Virus record (IMG/VR): IMGVR_UViG_3300050025_000126 | Location: 43,277-107,276 of that record | Source: a virus | Length of the DNA stretch: 64,000 nucleotides | Direction: 5' to 3' (one strand) | Shown here: positions 46,673 to 55,400 of the stretch, in pieces | Layout of the letters: the number at the start of each line of letters is the position of its first letter | How positions within the stretch are numbered: position 1 is the first letter of the stretch | The notes under the pieces: model-generated | Seen by the model: only the letters and a program-made list of their open reading frames with translations | What the model was told of the DNA's origin: nothing | Database searches by the model: none | Translations under genes and position numbers: made by a program

Positions 46673-47704
46673 TTACGTCCAGAGGTCGTCGAAGTTTTCT
46701 GGAGCCGGTGGGGCCTTGGGCTCTTCCTTGGGAGCCTCGACCTTTGCGGGTTCAACTTTCGGTGTCTCTGTAGGTGTTACAACTACACTCTTCTTGGACT
46801 CGCCCGGTGTTGCAGACTCTCCCGTAGCTACCCCACCCGTGTAATCAACATCGTCAACCGGAGCCGCCTTCTTCTTTTCGACTTCTAGAATGAGGTCTAC
46901 TTCCTTGGGGTCTGGACTGCCCTTGCCAGCCTTATCTAGAGCCACCAGGGCGTTGATTTGCTCAACTGTAATACGGTTCTGCTCCCGTAGGTCCTTAAGG
47001 TCAGGAATGCGTCCTGCGGCTTCCATAAGCTGTTCGTCTGAAATACGATGGATATCCTTGATTTCGGAACCGTCGGCTTGAGTAATGCGGTTAACCACTG
47101 CCTTGTCAGAAGTAGGAGAGGCCTTGCCAGTACGAGTGAACTTGAACCAGACACCCTTACGACCAGCAGGCTTGATAAGCTCTGTAGTACCAGGGTAGGT
47201 TTGTGTTCGTAATTGACGCATCTCTTCCTTAAGGCTCTTAACGAAATTGTAAGGAGCTACAAAGATACCAAACTGCCCTTGCTTATTAATGCAAGGAATA
47301 CGGAACTTACCATCTAGACCGTGGTCATCCTTCCAGGCCTGAAGCTTCTTACCCATTTCTGAATTAGGGTCAGTTGCCTTAATCTTTTCAATAAAAGAGT
47401 TGCGATATGTACAAGCAGGGCACTCCGTTGTAATCATCCCGTAATTCTTCTCTTGAATACAAAGGAATGGGTGATAGGCCTTCTTGGAAGGGTCTTTGTC
47501 GTTGATACCATTCCAGCCATAGTGAAGAGCCCAGTACAGCCCGAAATCATCAAGCTGCAACAGAGACTTCATCATAGGAAGGACTCGTAGGATATGCTCA
47601 TCTACTTCACCGTCCTTGATGTTCTTGAACTTCCAGATTTCATACTTTTGCGACATACCACTTGGGTCGCCAAATCCTGCGGGCAATTCGTTGTCATTAC
47701 TCAT
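46673..47704 (-). CDS. Single-stranded DNA-binding protein (gp32-like)
   Basis: LRVLP, HY...C...CPAC zinc site, acidic tail FDDLWT. Confidence 0.75.
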   Translation of the reverse strand: MSNDNELPAGFGDPSGMSQKYEIWKFKNIKDGEVDEHILRVLPMMKSLLQLDDFGLYWALHYGWNGINDKDPSKKAYHPFLCIQEKNYGMITTECPACTYRNSFIEKIKATDPNSEMGKKLQAWKDDHGLDGKFRIPCINKQGQFGIFVAPYNFVKSLKEEMRQLRTQTYPGTTELIKPAGRKGVWFKFTRTGKASPTSDKAVVNRITQADGSEIKDIHRISDEQLMEAAGRIPDLKDLREQNRITVEQINALVALDKAGKGSPDPKEVDLILEVEKKKAAPVDDVDYTGGVATGESATPGESKKSVVVTPTETPKVEPAKVEAPKEEPKAPPAPENFDDLWT

Positions 47705-47705
47705 T

Positions 47706-47957
47706 CTACTTCTTCTCCTTTTTTACTTTCTTCTTTGGTTTTAGGTCTTCGACCTTTTCTTTTGCTTGATGGGCCTCTTCGCCCAGTTTGAATTCGGGGT
47801 ATTTATTGATAAGCTCTTCTGTCTTTAGTTTTACTAGAAAATCTTCTAAAAACGATTTAACGTCCTTTACAAATTCAATCCGTGCTCCGTAACTCATCTT
47901 CCCTAGTTCGTAAACAAAGGCGTAAATTCTGGGTTGCTCGTCGGTTACTTTATTCAT
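47706..47957 (-). CDS. Hypothetical protein
   Basis: 83-aa ORF in operon. Confidence 0.6.
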   Translation of the reverse strand: MNKVTDEQPRIYAFVYELGKMSYGARIEFVKDVKSFLEDFLVKLKTEELINKYPEFKLGEEAHQAKEKVEDLKPKKKVKKEKK

Positions 47958-48690
47958 CTGTGCTTTCTACTTGTACTGGCTTTTGGGCCTTAAACAACGC
48001 TACAATCTTTGCTGCCGTGGGTACAAACCCTACAGGTAGGACACAGTCTGAAGACCTACTAAAAAGTGTTGCAATTGCGTTTCGCTCTTCCATTGACCCA
48101 ACTCCAGTTACCATTACGGGGATTTGCTTAGAATCGATTTCATTCCGTACTATACCATCTACAAGGGTCTTAGTCAAGAGGTCAATGTTGGCTTGGTCCC
48201 CTACCCGACATTCACGAAGAATACTTCTAATGTGAGCTAGTGTAGCTGCTGCATCCTTACAGACAGCTTCACGGAACTTTGGAGACTCAATCTCCATATA
48301 GCCCAGGTCGGTAGCAATCTGAGAAATCTTCTGGACCATCAAGCTATATTGAGTAGTGCAAAAAAGACGGTCAGCACTATAGGAGGGCTCGACTAGATCA
48401 GTAATGGATTGATAAAGCTGTGCTGCGTCTAAAACCACTCCCTCGTTATCATTAAGGAACTTGGCCGTGCTTTCCATAGCCTCCTTGTCTCCACTTACAA
48501 ACAATCCAACCAAATTAGAAGGAATTACAATTGCCCTCATTTCGTCTAGGAGCCTGGGAAGCTTCTCCGACGCCTGGATAACTTGTATCTGTACCGCTGG
48601 CCTTTGACCATAAGGAACAGCTTCAATCTCCTGTGAGATGACTTGGTTTGTGTTCTCGATGTCCTTACTAACTTCTGCAATTGTTCTCAT
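47950..48690 (-). CDS. Hypothetical protein, possibly degenerate NMP-kinase-like fold
   Basis: AAGGAG RBS; strand pattern GLFVSG / VVLDA / VMVTGV without a P-loop Lys. Confidence 0.55.
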   Translation of the reverse strand: MRTIAEVSKDIENTNQVISQEIEAVPYGQRPAVQIQVIQASEKLPRLLDEMRAIVIPSNLVGLFVSGDKEAMESTAKFLNDNEGVVLDAAQLYQSITDLVEPSYSADRLFCTTQYSLMVQKISQIATDLGYMEIESPKFREAVCKDAAATLAHIRSILRECRVGDQANIDLLTKTLVDGIVRNEIDSKQIPVMVTGVGSMEERNAIATLFSRSSDCVLPVGFVPTAAKIVALFKAQKPVQVESTDE

Positions 48691-48699
48691 AAATCTCCT

Positions 48700-48885
48700 T
48701 TAGTTCAATACTATCGTTGCTTCTGCTTCTTGTTTTACTTGTGCTACCGACTTGCCCAAAAGGGTCTCTAGAAACACCAGATGCTTGTGTTGGTGTTCAA
48801 GTAATTGTAAACTAGAGTTAAGCTCCCTGGTAAGCTGTCGGATTAATCTTTGGTCTCTTGTGAGCGGCTTACTTTGTTTCTTCAT
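48700..48885 (-). CDS. Small coiled-coil protein
   Basis: 61-aa ORF in operon. Confidence 0.55.
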   Translation of the reverse strand: MKKQSKPLTRDQRLIRQLTRELNSSLQLLEHQHKHLVFLETLLGKSVAQVKQEAEATIVLN

Positions 48886-51151
48886 CTTTTACCTTTTCTA
48901 CGGGGCCTCTAATTAATTGTAATTTGCGGAAACTCCAGCCTTTGTTCAAGTCGGTTTTGGTAATTACTCCGACTATAATTGAACCGACCTTCAAATTCGT
49001 TACTTCTGCTGGGTATCCTCCATCTTGACCTGGCCATGATACCACTTCTTTTTTGAAACCGCAAGCGTCGATGAAAACTTTCTTGGCCGACTTGGATTTG
49101 TTTTGGTAGGAGAACGTCTCCAAATTGTCTACATGTCCTACAATTGCACACTTGAACCCGTTCTGTGGCAGTTCCAACGCCGTGTCCACATCAACAAGGT
49201 CTGCTCTACTTACAACCCTATCTACTGAATCAACCTCTTCTCTAGCTTCTCTGCTCCAGGCCTTGTAGTGGTAAAGCAAATCTCCCGTTTCGTTTTCGGT
49301 AAAATAAAGCCCATCGTTTACCGACATCAAATTCCTAATATCCTCTGAATAAGCAGGCAATACATCTTTCTTTACCTGGAAGCGCCCCAATGCGTCTAAT
49401 GTAGGATATTGGACCTTTGACTTGTTATACTTTTTCCCTTCTGCCAGCGTATAACGCTTTAGCAGTGTCTGGTATTGCTCGATTCGTTCTGCGATTGATA
49501 AATTGGGGTCGAACAAGCTGTCCAAAATCCCAGCGACAAACAATGTATGCATAGTTCCAATTGTAATAGCACTTCTACGCCACTTACCCTCTACCGCCCC
49601 AGCCTTCCTATACTCCACAATCTTCTTGCAAAAATCGTCTGCCGATTCGTAAGGCGCATATTGATTGAGCTGGGCATGGGCCGTTTCACCAATACCATAG
49701 CACAAATCAATAGGGGCTCTAATTCTATCACCTACAATAGCCCAAGTAGGCTTAGACAATTTGATATCTGGTAAGTCTACGATATTTTCGACGTAAGGCC
49801 AGAATTTTTCTGTCACTTCTTCTTTTTTAGCGTTTTTTAATACGCTACACCACCACTCTAAGGGATAGTAATGCTTGAGCCAGGCACAAGCATAAGAAAT
49901 AACTACATATCCCACACTGTGTGCTTGGCAAAAAGAGTAAGCAGAAAATTCGAGTAAGCCAGACCACACTTCTTTTGCCTTATTTAATCCAATCTTAGGT
50001 GCGGCACGTTCGGTGAAAAAGGTGTATAATTTTGCCATTTCTTCGGGCTTCTTTTTTGCTGACAATCGGCGAAACGCTTCCGCTTCGCCTCCTGTACACC
50101 CGGTTAGATTTTGATAAACCTTCTGCAACCCCTCCTGGAATACAATTAGACCATAGGTGTCAGGAAGAAGAGCGTCAAATTCTGGTAAAATGTCTTTACT
50201 ACCAGGAAGGCCTCTAACCCTTCTAGCGTACTCTACTAACAGATTGTGTTTCTGCCCTGGTACGTCTGGATTGCTGACCACATAATTAAGCGGTCCAGGG
50301 CGGTCCAGGGCGGTAAAAGCTGCCATAGCCGCAATGCTATTGATTCCAGGAGTACCGTCGGGCCTTATGTGGTTAAATTGTCTTAGCCACTGAACGGCAG
50401 ATGCTGTGTTATACTGAAATACGGTTTCTGTTTTACCTTGACTGACATCTTTGTACACATCTAGATCTGTCGGAAGGTCCCAGATATCAACAAAATTATG
50501 GGAGACAGGGTCTAGAACAAGCCGGTGAGAGGGCACCTTGCGACCGTTTACGTTTTGTTCTACGGGGGACAATTGATTCTTTCTGCTGGCAATCAATTGT
50601 AAACACGATTGAATGTCCCTTAAACACAGCACGACAAGAAAATCAAACTTTAGAGCGCCTACATTTTCAATTTCTGAACCAGTAAAGGCTGTTACCTTAA
50701 TTCCAGATACGGACGTAATAGGGATAAAGTCACTGATTGGTTTGGGAGCAATTACGAATGCAGAAGCGTGCCTTCCTCTTTGACGTGGAAGTGCTAGTGC
50801 AGACTTGGCTATAGCCCACTGTTCTGGATATTTACTAATGTAGGTCTTTAGGGCCTCGTCCCTCTCGATGCTGCCCTGATGGTTGCCTTCATCGTCAGAC
50901 CATCCCATGATAAACCTTAGGTCCGAAAGCCCCTGAGGAGGCATTTCAAATTTCTTTACAAGGTCTTCGATATCTTGAGGGACCACCCCTAGAGTAAAGC
51001 GGGCCACGTCCTTAACACTGTTCTTTAGCTTAAGTGTAGTCAAAACACTTACCTGCGCCTGGCAATCTCCAAATCTTTCCTGAAGCCAGCCAGGGAAATA
51101 TGGCTTAAGGGTGCCATTTTTAGAACTATTTGTTATTTTTGCGAATTTCAT
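48869..51151 (-). CDS. dnaE: DNA polymerase III alpha, C-terminal part (split gene)
   Basis: GRHASA, KFDFL, VFQY, DRPGP, TYGLIVFQE, YSFCQAHS; ATG (MKFAK) overlaps the upstream TGA. Confidence 0.92.
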   Translation of the reverse strand: MKFAKITNSSKNGTLKPYFPGWLQERFGDCQAQVSVLTTLKLKNSVKDVARFTLGVVPQDIEDLVKKFEMPPQGLSDLRFIMGWSDDEGNHQGSIERDEALKTYISKYPEQWAIAKSALALPRQRGRHASAFVIAPKPISDFIPITSVSGIKVTAFTGSEIENVGALKFDFLVVLCLRDIQSCLQLIASRKNQLSPVEQNVNGRKVPSHRLVLDPVSHNFVDIWDLPTDLDVYKDVSQGKTETVFQYNTASAVQWLRQFNHIRPDGTPGINSIAAMAAFTALDRPGPLNYVVSNPDVPGQKHNLLVEYARRVRGLPGSKDILPEFDALLPDTYGLIVFQEGLQKVYQNLTGCTGGEAEAFRRLSAKKKPEEMAKLYTFFTERAAPKIGLNKAKEVWSGLLEFSAYSFCQAHSVGYVVISYACAWLKHYYPLEWWCSVLKNAKKEEVTEKFWPYVENIVDLPDIKLSKPTWAIVGDRIRAPIDLCYGIGETAHAQLNQYAPYESADDFCKKIVEYRKAGAVEGKWRRSAITIGTMHTLFVAGILDSLFDPNLSIAERIEQYQTLLKRYTLAEGKKYNKSKVQYPTLDALGRFQVKKDVLPAYSEDIRNLMSVNDGLYFTENETGDLLYHYKAWSREAREEVDSVDRVVSRADLVDVDTALELPQNGFKCAIVGHVDNLETFSYQNKSKSAKKVFIDACGFKKEVVSWPGQDGGYPAEVTNLKVGSIIVGVITKTDLNKGWSFRKLQLIRGPVEKVKDEETK

Positions 51152-54100
51152 TGGTTGTTCCACCAAGGAACGAAATCTATGTTTTCTTCTACCACTTTTT
51201 TAATAGGAAGTACACCTTTTTCTGTTTCTACTCGAAAATCTTCCGGGAGAACATGTTTTGTGCCATCTTCCGCCTCAACCTCTACGACATCACAGTCCTT
51301 GCCGCAAAGAAGATCTCTATTAGAGAAATCCAAATCCACGTCTGGCATAGTGTGGGACTTAATTCTGTCCAATGTAAGAAACCTGTCTAGGCTAAGTCCA
51401 TGTTGAATGGGGTCAATCGAGGTGATACCTAACAGATAAGAAAGTAACACACCTCCTGCGCTATTGTGTACCGCGTATTCAGAGGTCAAAAAGGAATGGT
51501 CATGTTCAACTTCGAGGTCAAACACCTCTTTTATTGATGAATATTCCTTACTTAAAACAGTAGACCAATATCCTATAGTTGATTCATTGGACCATCTAAA
51601 CTCTATTTTATAACTTCTATTACATAGATATTTTCCACGATAAAAAGGCTCTCTTGTATTTACAGACGATGGGATTCCAAACCTTAGAAGAGCTTCCCTA
51701 AAAGAATCCTTCAGAAGCACGCTGGTTGTATCGAAGGTGTAGCTTGGTCTTCCCTTTCCTTTTTTAGGTTTTTTTGTGTGACCATCAGAGTCCATGAGGC
51801 CCAGGAGGAGTGATTTTAGCAAATTTTTTGGCCAATTCAACCACTCTTTCGGGATGTATTTTGTTCCAGAAGAGTTTTTGTACAACGGAAACAAGCTCCG
51901 GAATAGTTTACACAGAATACTTGAACTTGCCATCAGCTGAACTAGTTTTTTAGTCTTGTGTTGGACCTCAACAGGTTTAGATACGCAGTAAGGGGCTAGA
52001 ATGGCTTTTATCTTTTCTATGCCGTCACGATCTTTTGTGTTGAACGCAACCCCTAGTCGTTGTTCTTTGTTTATCCAACCGTCCCCAATCCACCGACCCA
52101 GAAGATAGGAAAAATCTTCAGAGACGTTAATATACCTTGGGTGGTTAACAGTTTTGGGGGTCCTCCATTCGTCGACCGTGAGACCAACCTTACTTAGTTC
52201 ATCGTTTATTTTAGATAAAGCTAGAATGCTTCTTGTGGCTTTTCTCCCATTTTTCATAACAAGAGGCGGGACGTATCCGTTTCTGACTTTCCCTAGAAAG
52301 GTCCTGTTCCCACCGAGACGTCTTCCTCCAGGTATTTCGCTGATAAAAGTCCGTGAGATAATCTTCGACTCTTCAACGTCCACCCCGTCGTGGACAAACT
52401 CAGCCAAGTCTAACGGGTCTGGGGAAACTTCTTTTACCAAAATTCTAGGAGTGAAAACAACATCTCCGACTTTAAGAGCATCCGCTTCTATCCAGCTCGG
52501 GACCCATTTTTCATCTTTCCAAACCCTGATACTGGACAGAGTTGATTTGCTGAGCCTTTCCAATCCGGCAATTTTCGATCTTTTGAAACCGTATACTTTG
52601 TGGTCTTTTGTTAGAAGAAATGGAGTGTGTTTGTAGGTTGTCTTAAGCTTCACGCATTCTTCGTCTGTGTTGTATTTGAAAGTGTTCGTAACTTTGCGAA
52701 CATTTCCCTGGTGGGAGTAAACTTCATCACCGACTTTTATGTCTCTTATTTTCCTGTACCCACATGTTGTAAGAATTAAGGCGTCACCTTCTAGACAGCC
52801 TCTGGAACTGCCGACAAGAACGCCCTGGTTTTCATACAAACGGCATTGCTCCTCGCACGTAAAGAAGTAGGGCAATAGGTCCACTGTTCCGTTACGGTGG
52901 AACAGCTGTATCTCCTGCTTTAACCTAGCAATATACCTGGGGTCATCTTTAGGCATTCTGCCATGTTGTTCGATAAGTTTCTTGGTGTGACCTAAGGTAT
53001 CTTGGGGATAGAACTTTGTGGGTAGTTGTAGGGTGTTGTCGAATTTGAAGTCTTTGAACGAATCTCTAAACGCATAGCTGTTGTCAACCCAAGATTCAAA
53101 TTCTTTTTCTGAAATATTATGTTTCTCTTTGAAGTGAGCAAAGGCTTCGTCACTTGAATATCGGTGATACGAGGATGCGAACCGCCAGTCCCCCATTTGA
53201 GAAAGTTTTACATCCTGGACGATTTTCATATTTGGTGACGCGAAGTGACAATCGTCCGAGACAACTATGGGTAGGTTATATTTTTTTGCCATACCCATCA
53301 TGAAAACGTTTACCCCCCATTGCAGGTCGCCTCCTGGGGCCGCTGGAGAGCAATCATTTTGTATAAAACCTTCGTGCTTACGAACACCTATAATAGGTAG
53401 AGGAACCTCAACGTCAGTCCAGGTGTGAAAGTTCTTGATAGCCAACAGTGTTAGCTTCTTTTTTCCATTCCACTTGTCGGCTAACTCCTCGGCTTTAATC
53501 TCCCCATCTTCGGTTTTTAGGGTCTTGCCGTAGTAGAACTTCAGAGTCTTTTTTGCTTCACCTTCTCCGACCTCGATAAATACTCCTTTAGAGAATTCTC
53601 GGTCACACACATGAGGAAACACCTCAACAATCATTCTGTCACCAAACAGATGATGAAGTCTTTCAAAATAGCCCTTGGCTGCGCCTAGCTTAACGCTAGC
53701 GGGGCTCTCGGTGTTGATTAGGTGTCGGCTGACCATTCCAACCAAACACCCTGATCCAACAGTTGTTTTAGTTGCAGCAAGCTCTTCCAAATCCGACCAA
53801 TCAAACAGTGGCTTGCGCTCTGAGCCGTGGATTTCCGCTCTATCGTCAGCCTTAGATAAAAGTTTGACGCCTTTAAGATAAGCGTCGTAATTTTGAAAAC
53901 CTAACGTGATGTGGTAATATTTATTGTAAGAGTAAAACGTTCCATCTGGATGGTCAGCCTTCCAGTTATCCTTATCCATGCCACGGGGCACGGTGTCAGT
54001 TTTAGGAATGCCTAATCTAGTTAGAATAGGACAATCGTTTGACCTAAAATACGCCTCAATACCTGGAATTGCGATTAGATTGTTCTTTTTTGCAAGTGCA

Positions 54101-54249
54101 GAGATCCTGTAAATAGCGGCCAGACTTCCGTGGTCGGTTGCTGTAATGGCTCCTGTACCTAGTTCTATTTCTCTAGCACAAAAGGCCTCTGGAGTAGAGG
54201 CTGAGTCTAGAGACATTACGTGGACGTGTGGAGAAACAAAATTCTTCAA
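51148..54249 (-). CDS. dnaE: DNA polymerase III alpha, N-terminal part with PHP domain and intein
   Basis: HVH..SLDS, TDHG, GIEAY, DCH, RG|SAGG, RFL...MPDVDLDF. Confidence 0.92.
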   Translation of the reverse strand: MKNFVSPHVHVMSLDSASTPEAFCAREIELGTGAITATDHGSLAAIYRISALAKKNNLIAIPGIEAYFRSNDCPILTRLGIPKTDTVPRGMDKDNWKADHPDGTFYSYNKYYHITLGFQNYDAYLKGVKLLSKADDRAEIHGSERKPLFDWSDLEELAATKTTVGSGCLVGMVSRHLINTESPASVKLGAAKGYFERLHHLFGDRMIVEVFPHVCDREFSKGVFIEVGEGEAKKTLKFYYGKTLKTEDGEIKAEELADKWNGKKKLTLLAIKNFHTWTDVEVPLPIIGVRKHEGFIQNDCSPAAPGGDLQWGVNVFMMGMAKKYNLPIVVSDDCHFASPNMKIVQDVKLSQMGDWRFASSYHRYSSDEAFAHFKEKHNISEKEFESWVDNSYAFRDSFKDFKFDNTLQLPTKFYPQDTLGHTKKLIEQHGRMPKDDPRYIARLKQEIQLFHRNGTVDLLPYFFTCEEQCRLYENQGVLVGSSRGCLEGDALILTTCGYRKIRDIKVGDEVYSHQGNVRKVTNTFKYNTDEECVKLKTTYKHTPFLLTKDHKVYGFKRSKIAGLERLSKSTLSSIRVWKDEKWVPSWIEADALKVGDVVFTPRILVKEVSPDPLDLAEFVHDGVDVEESKIISRTFISEIPGGRRLGGNRTFLGKVRNGYVPPLVMKNGRKATRSILALSKINDELSKVGLTVDEWRTPKTVNHPRYINVSEDFSYLLGRWIGDGWINKEQRLGVAFNTKDRDGIEKIKAILAPYCVSKPVEVQHKTKKLVQLMASSSILCKLFRSLFPLYKNSSGTKYIPKEWLNWPKNLLKSLLLGLMDSDGHTKKPKKGKGRPSYTFDTTSVLLKDSFREALLRFGIPSSVNTREPFYRGKYLCNRSYKIEFRWSNESTIGYWSTVLSKEYSSIKEVFDLEVEHDHSFLTSEYAVHNSAGGVLLSYLLGITSIDPIQHGLSLDRFLTLDRIKSHTMPDVDLDFSNRDLLCGKDCDVVEVEAEDGTKHVLPEDFRVETEKGVLPIKKVVEENIDFVPWWNNQ
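51463..52797 (-). mobile_element. Intein with LAGLIDADG endonuclease in DnaE (445 aa)
   Basis: RG|CLEGD...TKDH...LLGRWIGDG...LLGLMDSDG...AVHN|SAG. Confidence 0.93.
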
Positions 54250-54254
54250 AATAC

Positions 54255-54464
54255 CTACTTTAGCTCTGCTGCAACCTTGGCCATGGCGCCCTCAATGACA
54301 ACCTTAGCGTTTACCTCTTGGTTGTGGGCAGCTTCTTTTTCTTTAAGCTGCTTAACCAATGTGTCAATTTCGTGTTTAATATTCTTGATGTTTTCTACCT
54401 TACGACCTCTGTCAATGGACAGTCTAGCCAAGGTATCATACGGGTCTTCTTTTGTATCAGACAT
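54255..54464 (-). CDS. Small coiled-coil protein
   Basis: 69-aa ORF with AGGGG RBS. Confidence 0.6.
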   Translation of the reverse strand: MSDTKEDPYDTLARLSIDRGRKVENIKNIKHEIDTLVKQLKEKEAAHNQEVNAKVVIEGAMAKVAAELK

Positions 54465-54629
54465 GTTTACCCCCTTAAAGTCTACTAATTACAACGGCCC
54501 AGTTTGCGATTGCAAGAAAGAGTAAAAAGAACGCTTGCCACAATTCTCTTTTAGCAAAGCTACGTCCTGCTAAGTTAGCGCACCACATAGCAATGGCCAT
54601 ACCATAAACGATCCAAAATATATATCCAT

Positions 54630-54797
54630 TAAATCCTACTTTCTTCCCACGCTTCTTCGAGGTGAGAGGCTAAAGAATAGCACAGCAGCCCGCACAAAGC
54701 AAACGTTAAAAGGTCTCCGTCACAAAAAGCTCCGACGGCATGCGTTCCAAAGAACGCAGCAGCAAAGCCATGAACACAAGCAGAAAGGTATCTCATA
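54630..54797 (-). CDS. Small hydrophobic protein (55 aa, not in ORF track)
   Basis: MRYLSACVHGFAAAFF...ESRI*. Confidence 0.45.
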
Positions 54798-54804
54798 TTT
54801 CGTA

Positions 54805-55014
54805 CTATACGCCCATTTGAGCGCGAAGTACAGAGATAATTTTTTGATAACGAATTTCTACTTCTTCTTCGGTGATATTGAGGGCTTGGGCGATGATGTG
54901 AGCGGGGGCGCCTTCGGGGTAGCGTTTTTCTAACGCAGTTATACTATTACCATAACGCTTAACAGCAATATAGTCTGGCAGTGTTTCTAGCATGTTTTGT
55001 ACATCTTGCGTCAT
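54805..55014 (-). CDS. Small HTH protein resembling sigma region 4
   Basis: IIAQALNITEEEVEIRYQKIISVLR. Confidence 0.55.
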   Translation of the reverse strand: MTQDVQNMLETLPDYIAVKRYGNSITALEKRYPEGAPAHIIAQALNITEEEVEIRYQKIISVLRAQMGV

Positions 55015-55400
55015 TGACTTCCGTGGAGGCCCGAAACGTTAGCTTCTGCTTTTGCCAGCTGCTTTGCCAAGGCTCCATAAGAATCTTGGTACAGTTTTTG
55101 CATCTTTTTTACGCTTAGGAGCGCCGCCTGGATAACCGACTTGTGAGACTTCGCCTGCTCTAAAAAATTCTCCAAGGTGTTGACATCCTTGCAAGTAGCC
55201 AAATATTCATCTCTATTGACTAAATCCTTGTCCTTGCAATCTTTACGCCTCTTCTTGGCTACTTCCAAGCCTTCTTTAGTTGTTACCTCGGTTACGATAG
55301 CTTTATCTAGGTCAGCTTGAGTATGTTGGATTCGTACTTCTAAGTTTTGTAGCTCTACGTGAACTACCCCCATTTTGCTCGTTATTTCGGTGGCGGTCAC
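55011..55400 (-). CDS. Coiled-coil protein
   Basis: 129-aa ORF in operon. Confidence 0.6.
   Translation of the reverse strand: MTATEITSKMGVVHVELQNLEVRIQHTQADLDKAIVTEVTTKEGLEVAKKRRKDCKDKDLVNRDEYLATCKDVNTLENFLEQAKSHKSVIQAALLSVKKMQKLYQDSYGALAKQLAKAEANVSGLHGSQ

Follow-up and report, generated by a model that had tools for sequence, protein, structure and literature searches.

A phage DnaE replicase split into two genes within a non-splicing half-intein, a probable clasp between its halves

The usual view of inteins is that they either splice or are lost, the reason being that an intein that no longer splices should kill its host protein. The 64,000 nucleotides of phage DNA analysed here (the window) come from an uncultured peat phage and carry a replicative DNA polymerase whose gene is broken in the palm domain, with additional residues on both broken ends. 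We ask what these residues are, whether the break is real, and how two such polypeptides might make one enzyme. The features of the locus are collected in Table 1.

Table 1. Features of the split dnaE locus in the window
Feature	Position	Strand	Description
dnaE-N gene	51148..54249	minus	1033 aa; PHP, full LAGLIDADG intein, first palm part with two catalytic Asp, half-HINT tail
dnaE-C gene	48869..51151	minus	760 aa; remaining palm, thumb, fingers, C-terminal domains
PDVDLDF palm motif	51325..51345	minus	two of three catalytic Asp; aligns with PDIDMDF of Mx1 DnaE
dnaE-N tail	51151..51306	minus	52 aa; N-piece of half-HINT module
ATGA overlap	51148..51151	minus	gene 1 stop TGA (51148-51150) and gene 2 ATG at 51151; -1 offset
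dnaE-C head	51092..51151	minus	20 aa, net charge +4; begins MKFAKITNSS
KFDFL	50636..50650	minus	in dnaE-C; located by sequence
Separate LAGLIDADG-endonuclease intein	51463..52797	minus	445 aa, SSRG/CLEGD...VHN/SAGG; Pfam LAGLIDADG_3, Intein_splicing, Hint_2

The two genes together encode a DnaE (Pol III alpha) polymerase, with PF02811, PF07733 and PF17657 all exceeding their Pfam cut-offs. dnaE-N matches PF02811, PF07733 (profile positions 66–111), PF14528 and PF14890, and dnaE-C matches PF07733 (profile positions 120–259) and PF17657 and is 39.8% identical to the DnaE of Myxococcus phage Mx1. In dnaE-N the PDVDLDF motif is followed by SNRDLL and then by a tail that begins CGKDCDVVEVEAEDGTKHVLPEDF; the break point lies 13 residues past PDVDLDF, and the tail that follows is acidic (net charge -7 for its 49-residue core, which extends to WW). 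dnaE-C returns to DnaE sequence at GWLQERFG, its residue 21. Because the PF07733 match ends at profile position 111 in the first gene and takes up again at 120 in the second, the break carries about 70 additional residues; Mx1 DnaE, which is unsplit, has just five residues at this position, and unsplit relatives have a loop of 0–9 residues where the tail and head stand here. In E. coli Pol III alpha the third catalytic Asp is D555. We take KFDFL of dnaE-C to be the counterpart of its motif, in which case both polypeptides contribute to the active site. The separate LAGLIDADG intein within dnaE-N is apparently intact and has no part in the split. Megablast of the locus against a phage collection found no match. 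A preliminary description of this DNA, made from the sequence, had the MKFAKITNSS start, the ATGA coupling and the return of DnaE at GWLQERFG in agreement with the ORF coordinates; it also placed the tail correctly after PDVDLDF, but it stopped gene 1 after ...ENIDF, whereas the frame continues through VPWWNNQ to the TGA.

The split is conserved. The tail and head are kept in about 15 protein clusters from environmental phages, a tail of identical type terminates at least 17 N-half proteins, and the same head opens another five C-half proteins from the protein database, with more encoded in the loci of relatives. The two genes are disposed in at least six different ways among these relatives: the ATGA overlap of the window recurs in L031; the halves overlap by 20–29 nt in L007 and L008; in L109 a TAG is followed immediately by TTG, both halves being in one frame; in L029 a TAA is followed by a TTG; L005, an 83–85% identical relative, has a 630-nt gap that holds an antisense HNH/EndoVII-type gene (phrog_1035 endonuclease VII, E 7e-24) exactly between tail and head; and in L030 four small ORFs lie in a gap of 1.25 kb between the halves. 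The break in the window has no free-standing homing endonuclease gene, the two genes there overlapping by ATGA. In five cases (L033, P0029, P0030, P0032 and P0037) the insert is present in frame in a fused protein, and L006, which is nested within the clade, has lost the insert and encodes DnaE as one chain.

From a conserved tail and head in so many gene arrangements it follows that neither an assembly error nor a frameshift accounts for the split. The -1 offset of the ATGA overlap could in principle host ribosomal frameshifting, and the L109 halves, separated in frame by a single TAG, could be joined by readthrough; against this, some of the clusters that keep the split have 0.6–1.25 kb of other genes between the halves, every C-half has its own start codon, and two of the starts are preceded by purine runs that by eye may be Shine-Dalgarno-like. 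The junction is also identical and free of indels in contigs from two other metagenomes. An artefact of assembly or sequencing, or a joining of the halves during translation, thus has next to no likelihood. Separate translation is the rule because the arrangements differ between relatives, and programmed frameshifting or readthrough was rejected as a general mechanism, since frames and spacings vary among them.

What, then, is the extra material? AlphaFold2 (AF2) gave confident models of the module, of similar quality for the fused L033 protein (pLDDT 83.3, pTM 0.70) and for the two halves of L109 joined across their one TAG (pLDDT 84.9, pTM 0.72), and in them the head is a β-strand, at residues 67–72 in the former and a nine-residue strand at 62–70 in the latter. 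In two VIA-align searches against 48,161 chains the top 27 matches were in each case all HINT domains (inteins, hedgehog and BIL domains), the best being the gp41-1 intein (Z 6.3, rmsd 2.3 Å over 66 residues, model residues 10–82 against chain residues 41–107). Nearly all of the top Foldseek matches were likewise inteins, with probabilities up to 0.97 and weak E-values of 0.15 or more. Roughly half of a HINT fold is present, aligned by VIA-align with about residues 41–107 of a 125-residue intein. The first nine or so residues of the head are predicted to form the strand that completes the sheet of this half-HINT, the counterpart of the first C-intein strand. The natural split of gp41-1 is at 88/89 (an N-piece of 88 residues), a point that its match with the model spans, and that of Npu is at 102/103; the profile register and VIA-align ranges put the gene break at the gp41-1 point and within about three residues of the Npu point. 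The break therefore coincides with the canonical split-intein or endonuclease-insertion site, and the first gene product ends in one HINT piece while the second begins with its complement, as in a split intein.

Sequence comparison leads to the same family. A profile of the module, compared with PDB sequences, gave 15 hits, all but one of them chains of cyanobacterial-type DnaE split inteins (best E 4.8e-4), and in the alignment the tail stands opposite N-intein residues ~52–96, its PEDF being aligned with TKDH of the Npu and halophilic DnaE inteins. L030 has a live mini-intein in its own dnaE-C, and this too resembles the tail (BLASTP, 38% identity over 37 aa, E 0.001; hhalign, E 4e-4), its TEDH opposite PEDF. 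Single sequences (tails, fused inserts and short family members) matched no HINT family in Pfam even at E 10, and an HMM search of 1.84 billion protein representatives returned no bona fide intein at E≤1e-3; three matches from that search were rejected as false, being repeat proteins (one granulin-like, one ankyrin-like and one a repeat artefact). As the large search lacked inteins, the sequence link stands at E-values of about 1e-3 to 5e-4 from small searches.

These null results, and a Z range of 5–6.3 that is moderate and can reflect common β arrangements, could mean that the insert is a native small β-domain unrelated to inteins, perhaps with some other role such as partner binding, which has converged on half a HINT; neither the invariant His of DGTKH nor the WW has a counterpart in inteins. 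Convergence would, however, have to account for two lists headed by HINT domains only, for sequence-only intein hits that are exclusively DnaE split inteins in one register together with the live dnaE intein of L030, for a gene break at the canonical split-intein site and, in L005, for a homing-endonuclease-type gene exactly at the break. We consider it improbable. DnaE appears to be split inside a degenerate half of a HINT domain, as the preliminary description had proposed and as the ORFs, the structural searches and the profile comparison with PDB sequences agree; its likening of the first piece to the second half of cyanobacterial DnaE N-inteins finds the same register in the profile, and that of the second piece to the start of a C-intein is borne out by the head strand in the AF2 models and by the VIA-align ranges. 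Its own test, a search for HINT similarity by Foldseek and profile, found inteins.

The splicing residues are lost. Block A is missing, nothing in the module corresponding to intein residues 1 to ~50; the Thr and His of the block B TxxH are replaced by the Pro and Phe of the conserved PEDF; and blocks F and G are missing, the head having only 20 residues before DnaE sequence resumes. The residue after RDLL is Cys in 13 of 27 tails and V, E, T or A in the other 14, and it is E in the fused forms. In the head, Arg takes the place of the Asn of ITN/SS in L008, L030, P0026 and every fused form. Across the family, neither a splice nucleophile nor a terminal Asn is conserved. Because all of these elements are gone, the module should be unable to splice and should remain in the mature enzyme; the fused homologues, which by their sequences have the insert and no splice residue at all, also argue that it stays in the mature protein.

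A subgroup that includes the window and L005 nevertheless combines the Cys with Asn-Ser (in the window, RDLL/C and ITN/SS), and the ~60-residue element might there be an ultra-minimal trans-splicing intein of the form C...N/S, which the preliminary description had offered as its less favoured reading. A Cys does open nearly half of the tails. L007, L031 and L109, however, keep the Asn yet have no Cys; the rest of the chemistry is missing as described, and the smallest known active inteins, such as gp41-1, have ~125–135 residues. Trans-splicing is therefore very unlikely, and its proposal fell with the variable Cys and Asn and the lost block B Thr and His. The replacement of TxxH by PEDF and the absence of blocks F and G had both been read correctly, and a domesticated, non-splicing intein remnant is what the fold, the sequence profile and the family comparison all support.

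We think it probable that this two-chain DnaE, broken inside a non-splicing split-intein remnant, uses the remnant as a non-covalent clasp, which is the most likely role of the module. The ~70-residue β-domain inserted in the palm would be what is left of a degenerate DnaE-type split intein, with the acidic 49-residue core of the DnaE-N tail corresponding to the second half of the N-intein and the basic 20-residue head of DnaE-C supplying the strand that matches the first strand of the C-intein. Of the functions of a split intein the module would retain docking alone: the head strand would join the sheet of the tail, assisted by their opposite charges, and so provide the binding energy for assembly. 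Kept together in this way, the halves would form one active site from the two Asp of gene 1 and the presumed third Asp of gene 2. The ATGA overlap would serve to couple their translation. Splicing-dead split inteins serve in the laboratory as high-affinity docking pairs; the phage pieces would likewise bind and not splice, but the laboratory pairs are engineered, full-size and point-mutated, whereas the phage module is natural, about half that size and fixed in a phage lineage. On balance we also favour, less firmly, the stronger statement that this half-HINT of ~70 residues is a self-sufficient, high-affinity docking domain turned permanent replicase subunit interface, which would make it a naturally occurring 'dead split intein' and the smallest HINT-derived fold to stand on its own. 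A more radical version of this statement is that the Cys/Asn-bearing subgroup may still carry out cleavage or ligation chemistry of a non-canonical type.

Two observations count against a clasp. L006 deleted the insert cleanly and has a normal one-chain DnaE, so that the insert is dispensable for polymerase function as such, and the fused lineages retain it though they need no clasp. Both would suit a functionally neutral module, a passenger left by a dead mobile element, with the halves joining through the palm itself. Such a relic is expected to decay or vanish more often than is seen here. The tail is constant in length (49–52 aa), and EAEDGTKH, LPEDF and WW are highly conserved; the charges remain complementary (mean net charge -7.3 for 27 tails and +2.25 for 12 heads); and the head strand is retained in every tail-bearing split form examined. 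The insert and the flanking palm, the catalytic core, have equal dN, and omega is 0.13–0.22 where dS is defined; because most pairs are saturated at synonymous sites, dN and these few omega values are the usable measures. A neutral passenger is thus unlikely, though of the alternatives considered it deserves the most weight, and a dead half-intein retained as a clasp is the reading that we carry into the comparisons below.

The nearest known systems are the naturally split cyanobacterial DnaE inteins, Ssp and Npu DnaE-n/DnaE-c (Wu et al. 1998, as cited in PMC2677866), with which the phage module shares the DnaE host, the two polypeptides, the point of the break in the HINT fold, the alignment of its tail with the N-intein, and an acidic N-piece with a basic C-piece. 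Structures of DnaE split inteins are in the PDB as 4lx3, 2keq, 1zd7 and 7qil. The insertion site differs, as had been noted from the outset, being in the palm after PDxDxDF in the phage and in the fingers in cyanobacteria; the phage gene halves are adjacent and the cyanobacterial ones at separate loci; and the phage module is about half a HINT that lacks Cys1, TxxH, blocks F and G and the terminal Asn, on which account no splicing is expected of it.

Fractured phage-like genes, in which a split intein and a free-standing homing endonuclease gene lie between the halves, include three DnaE loci (Dassa et al. 2009, PMC2677866). They resemble the present locus in having adjacent halves in environmental phage DNA and HINT pieces at the broken ends, and the relative L005 even has its HNH/EndoVII-type gene between tail and head. 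Their inteins, however, retain the full set of six HINT motifs and five catalytic residues (PMC2677866), of which the phage module has none, and the window has no endonuclease gene at the break. In Aeromonas phage Aeh1 the insertion of mobE split NrdA into NrdA-a and NrdA-b and created tails that are protein interaction domains (Crona et al. 2010, PMC3045599). There too a mobile element broke an essential phage enzyme at its active site, and extra C- and N-terminal tails rescued it with no RNA or protein splicing. The Aeh1 tails are needed for higher-order assembly and are dispensable for heterodimer formation (PMC3045599), a point in favour of the passenger reading, and they are not reported to be HINT-derived, whereas the tails described here are two pieces of one recognisable, ancient domain. 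Our literature search found no published description of a DnaE split by a half-HINT.

The module exemplifies a third fate for inteins: the split intein of an essential replicase has lost its chemistry and half of its fold and is still kept under purifying selection across a phage clade. That clade contains two-chain enzymes, one-chain enzymes with the relic inside and, in one lineage, its clean removal, and so offers a graded set of natural cases in which to study how the breaking of a gene by a mobile element becomes permanent. For protein engineers the 49- and 20-residue pieces are a candidate minimal docking pair. The module also touches on the long-standing proposal of a half-size ancestor of the HINT fold, because half a HINT is here predicted to fold alone.

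The patterns used to scan metagenomes came from the conserved part of DnaE, and for this reason most of the 80 scanned loci are ordinary bacterial or phage DnaE genes with no insert. Viral scans with P0028 and P0018 yielded no usable locus. P0018, P0044 and P0045 have divergent tails, and P0028 has a divergent head.

The DnaE-type polymerase of this 107-kb IMG/VR viral contig from peat is encoded jointly by two minus-strand genes of the window, dnaE-N (gene 1) and dnaE-C (gene 2), which divide the Pol III alpha palm between them; gene 1 carries Pfam PF07733 profile positions 66–111 and gene 2 positions 120–259. The TGA of gene 1 shares bases with the ATG of gene 2 (ATGA, frame offset −1). The preliminary description correctly reported extra sequence at the C-terminal end of gene 1 but had it stop at ...IDF; this tail in fact has 52 residues and ends ...VPWWNNQ. 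Gene 2 opens with a 20-residue head (MKFAKITNSS...PYFP), after which DnaE sequence restarts at GWLQERFG. Its KFDFL motif presumably corresponds to the one with the third catalytic aspartate in E. coli Pol III alpha and, if this equivalence holds, the active site needs, and is built from, both chains. The surrounding genes lie in the order found in Myxococcus phage Mx1, with only about 40% protein identity.

Mx1 is the closest named phage and shares this gene neighbourhood, and its DnaE is a single protein of 1289 amino acids in which 5 residues lie between RDLL and GWL (0–9 in other unsplit relatives); the extra sequence at the DnaE break is an insertion. The same tail forms the C-terminal end of at least 17 N-half proteins (575–606 amino acids), the same head opens the C-half proteins of relatives, and an HMM run exhaustively against 1.84 billion representative proteins yielded about 15 true clusters for the module (tail plus head). 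The two genes overlap by ATGA in the window and in the related locus L031, and by 20–29 nt in L007 and L008; in L109 a TAG is followed directly by a TTG start with the frame unchanged, in L029 a TAA is followed by TTG, and the halves are separated by a 630-nt gap with an antisense HNH/EndoVII-type gene in L005 and by a 1.25-kb gap with four small ORFs in L030. Because the halves are arranged in so many ways, both a sequencing error as the cause of the split and a conserved recoding event joining the halves are ruled out. The junction is also identical, with no indel, in contigs of two other metagenomes, each of which bridges only ~21–23 bases on one side. Contigs of two other metagenomes (runs X2 and X3) start or end within ~25 bases of the gene junction (window 51127–51151), which might reflect co-existing junction variants, such as one that has an endonuclease gene and one that lacks it, or chance.

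Features of the split dnaE genes and of related loci (window coordinates unless a locus is named; / marks an intein junction)
Feature	Position	Strand	Description
dnaE-N (gene 1)	51148-54249	-	1033 aa; PHP domain, complete LAGLIDADG intein, first palm part
dnaE-C (gene 2)	ATG at 51151, to 48869	-	760 aa; finger domain and PF07733
PDVDLDF	51325-51345	-	in gene 1; then SNRDLL, then tail
CxxxC of tail	51292-51306	-	Cys pair after RDLL
KFDFL	50636-50650	-	in gene 2
Separate intein	51463-52797	-	complete, LAGLIDADG endonuclease domain, in dnaE-N, site SSRG/C...VHN/SAGG
Neighbourhood in Mx1 order	46673-56506	-	metallophosphatase, small ORFs, dnaE, 246-aa protein, ssDNA-binding protein
L005 ORF	L005:5278-5946	-	222 aa, antisense to dnaE, exactly between tail and head
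L030 intergenic ORFs	L030:3795-5018	+	four (78, 72, 73, 202 aa), between dnaE halves
L030 live mini-intein	L030:6209-6610	+	134 aa, CLYEDQ...AVAHN/C, in dnaE-C, inserted at AYGFN/CSH
L020 break	L020:6576-7209		DnaE broken after ...KMDFLSV..., ~630 nt between, frame changes; unsplit at the present site

AlphaFold2 models of the naturally fused insert of locus L033 (92 amino acids; pLDDT 83.3, pTM 0.70) and of the L109 pair, which is split in nature and was modelled by reading through the single TAG between its halves (89 amino acids; pLDDT 84.9, pTM 0.72), have the same small β-domain, in which the tail forms four strands and a short helix and head residues 1 to ~9 a long strand; the two models share one alignment and are not independent. 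VIA-align against 48,161 PDB representatives gave inteins, hedgehog or BIL domains in the top 27 rows of both searches, the best match being the gp41-1 intein (Z 6.3, rmsd 2.3 Å over 66 residues, model 10–82 against chain 41–107), and the Foldseek comparison with HINT domains that had been proposed earlier returned almost only inteins in its top rows, with weak E-values (≥0.15) and probabilities up to 0.97. Sequence searches, which use no structural model, agree: a module profile run against all PDB sequences had 15 matches at E ≤10, 14 of them cyanobacterial-type DnaE split inteins (best 7qil, E 4.8e-4; Npu N-intein 4lx3, E 0.0038). The tail lies opposite N-intein residues ~52–96, as expected from its suggested likeness to the second half of a DnaE N-intein, and its conserved PEDF falls opposite the block B TKDH, the replacement for TxxH that had been proposed. 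The second half of the live mini-intein of L030 is 38% identical over 37 residues to that locus's own tail (E 0.001; hhalign E 4e-4), with TEDH opposite PEDF. This mini-intein is inserted at what we take to be ~3–4 residues from the cyanobacterial split-DnaE site, and cluster P0026 has a similar intein in the same place. Taking the split points to be 102/103 in Npu and 88/89 in gp41-1, the gene break falls at the gp41-1 split point and no more than ~3 residues from that of Npu. In full inteins the endonuclease domain sits at this position, and the HNH-type gene of L005 is placed at the same break. Single module sequences gave no match to the Pfam HINT family, and the search of 1.84 billion proteins returned no real intein. 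Both the DGTKH His and the WW at the end are nearly invariant in tails and lack an intein counterpart.

Judged by its residues, the module does not splice. Block A (intein residues 1 to ~50) and blocks F and G (the last ~18 or more residues) have no counterpart in it, the lack of F and G having been recognised at the outset. Minimal trans-splicing through C...N/S, the less favoured of the earlier proposals, fares poorly: of 27 tails, 13 have Cys directly behind RDLL and the others V, E, T or A, and the second Cys position is likewise variable. In L008, L030, P0026 and all fused forms, the head has Arg instead of Asn ahead of Ser; the Asn is kept in L007, L031 and L109, all of which lack the tail Cys, so its conservation does not follow the presence of a nucleophile. 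With Glu or Val at one of its junctions and Arg at the opposite one, the insert of the fused forms must stay in the mature enzyme. None of the catalytic features by which inteins are recognised holds for the module. All 13 tails with Cys after RDLL also have Cys four positions on (CGKDC, CGMDC, CGYDC), a pair with no obvious role. The observation of a DnaE split within a degenerate half-HINT domain is confirmed, and its reading as a domesticated non-splicing intein remnant is supported by the structural and profile matches to HINT and the unconserved splice residues. The separate intein of dnaE-N has every expected end residue, so that a seemingly live intein and a dead relic sit in the same gene.

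The module would act like a split intein stripped of its splicing chemistry. Three published systems come closest: the cyanobacterial split DnaE inteins; the fractured genes of Dassa et al. 2009 (PMC2677866), with inteins in which every catalytic residue is kept; and the Aeh1 NrdA tails (Crona et al. 2010, PMC3045599), which confer function without splicing and are reported there without any description as HINT. Full-text literature searches returned no account of a half-intein that is natural, does not splice and lies at a gene break.

The whole insert is fused in frame within a single DnaE chain in L033 and clusters P0029, P0030, P0032 and P0037, a linker of 7–12 residues standing at the point of the break in the other forms. 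In a maximum-likelihood tree of DnaE C-terminal parts, rooted at the midpoint only, all DnaEs with the insert fall into a single clade (support 100/99) and fused L033 clusters with split L031 and L109 (94/92). L006, with an unsplit, insert-free DnaE whose helix is canonical (RDLL-IDF-LEKRYG), branches deep inside the insert clade as sister to the group of the window (99/97), and the alignment of its N-part with the gene 1 extein (78% identity) ends exactly at RDLL, indicating a clean local loss of the insert in this lineage. A single gain, one or more re-fusions and one clean loss make up the simplest history, in whichever order splitting and fusing took place.

Most likely, the half-HINT module holds the DnaE halves together. 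The head strand would join the tail's sheet in the way that a C-intein binds its N-intein, clamping both halves, restoring the helix that follows the catalytic aspartates and completing the palm; through the ATGA overlap, synthesis of the halves would be coupled and near-equimolar. Tails are strongly acidic (mean net charge −7.3, 49–52 residues, n=27) and heads basic (mean +2.25, 20 residues, n=12; +3 to +6 in fused forms), recalling the split-intein strand charge pattern stressed by Dassa et al. (PMC2677866). The main rival is a relic that is only tolerated, the palm halves assembling anyway; L006 and the fused lineages show that the insert is dispensable for catalysis as such. Module length is constant across the family, and its non-synonymous divergence is on par with that of the flanking palm (omega 0.13–0.22 where dS is defined).

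The L005 ORF matches phrog_1035 (endonuclease VII, E 7e-24) and HNH endonuclease families; in this relative (83–85% identical) the gene 1 tail has 11 more residues read from the inserted DNA, and P0002 and P0031 have similar extensions. The four L030 intergenic ORFs have no Pfam or PHROG match, and L111 has a tail and head identical to those of L030, spaced about as far apart. The C-half protein P0028 has a different, very basic head of 14 residues and lies outside the insert clade. P0018, P0044 and P0045 have divergent tails that lack the His, PEDF and WW, and could be intermediates or independent events.
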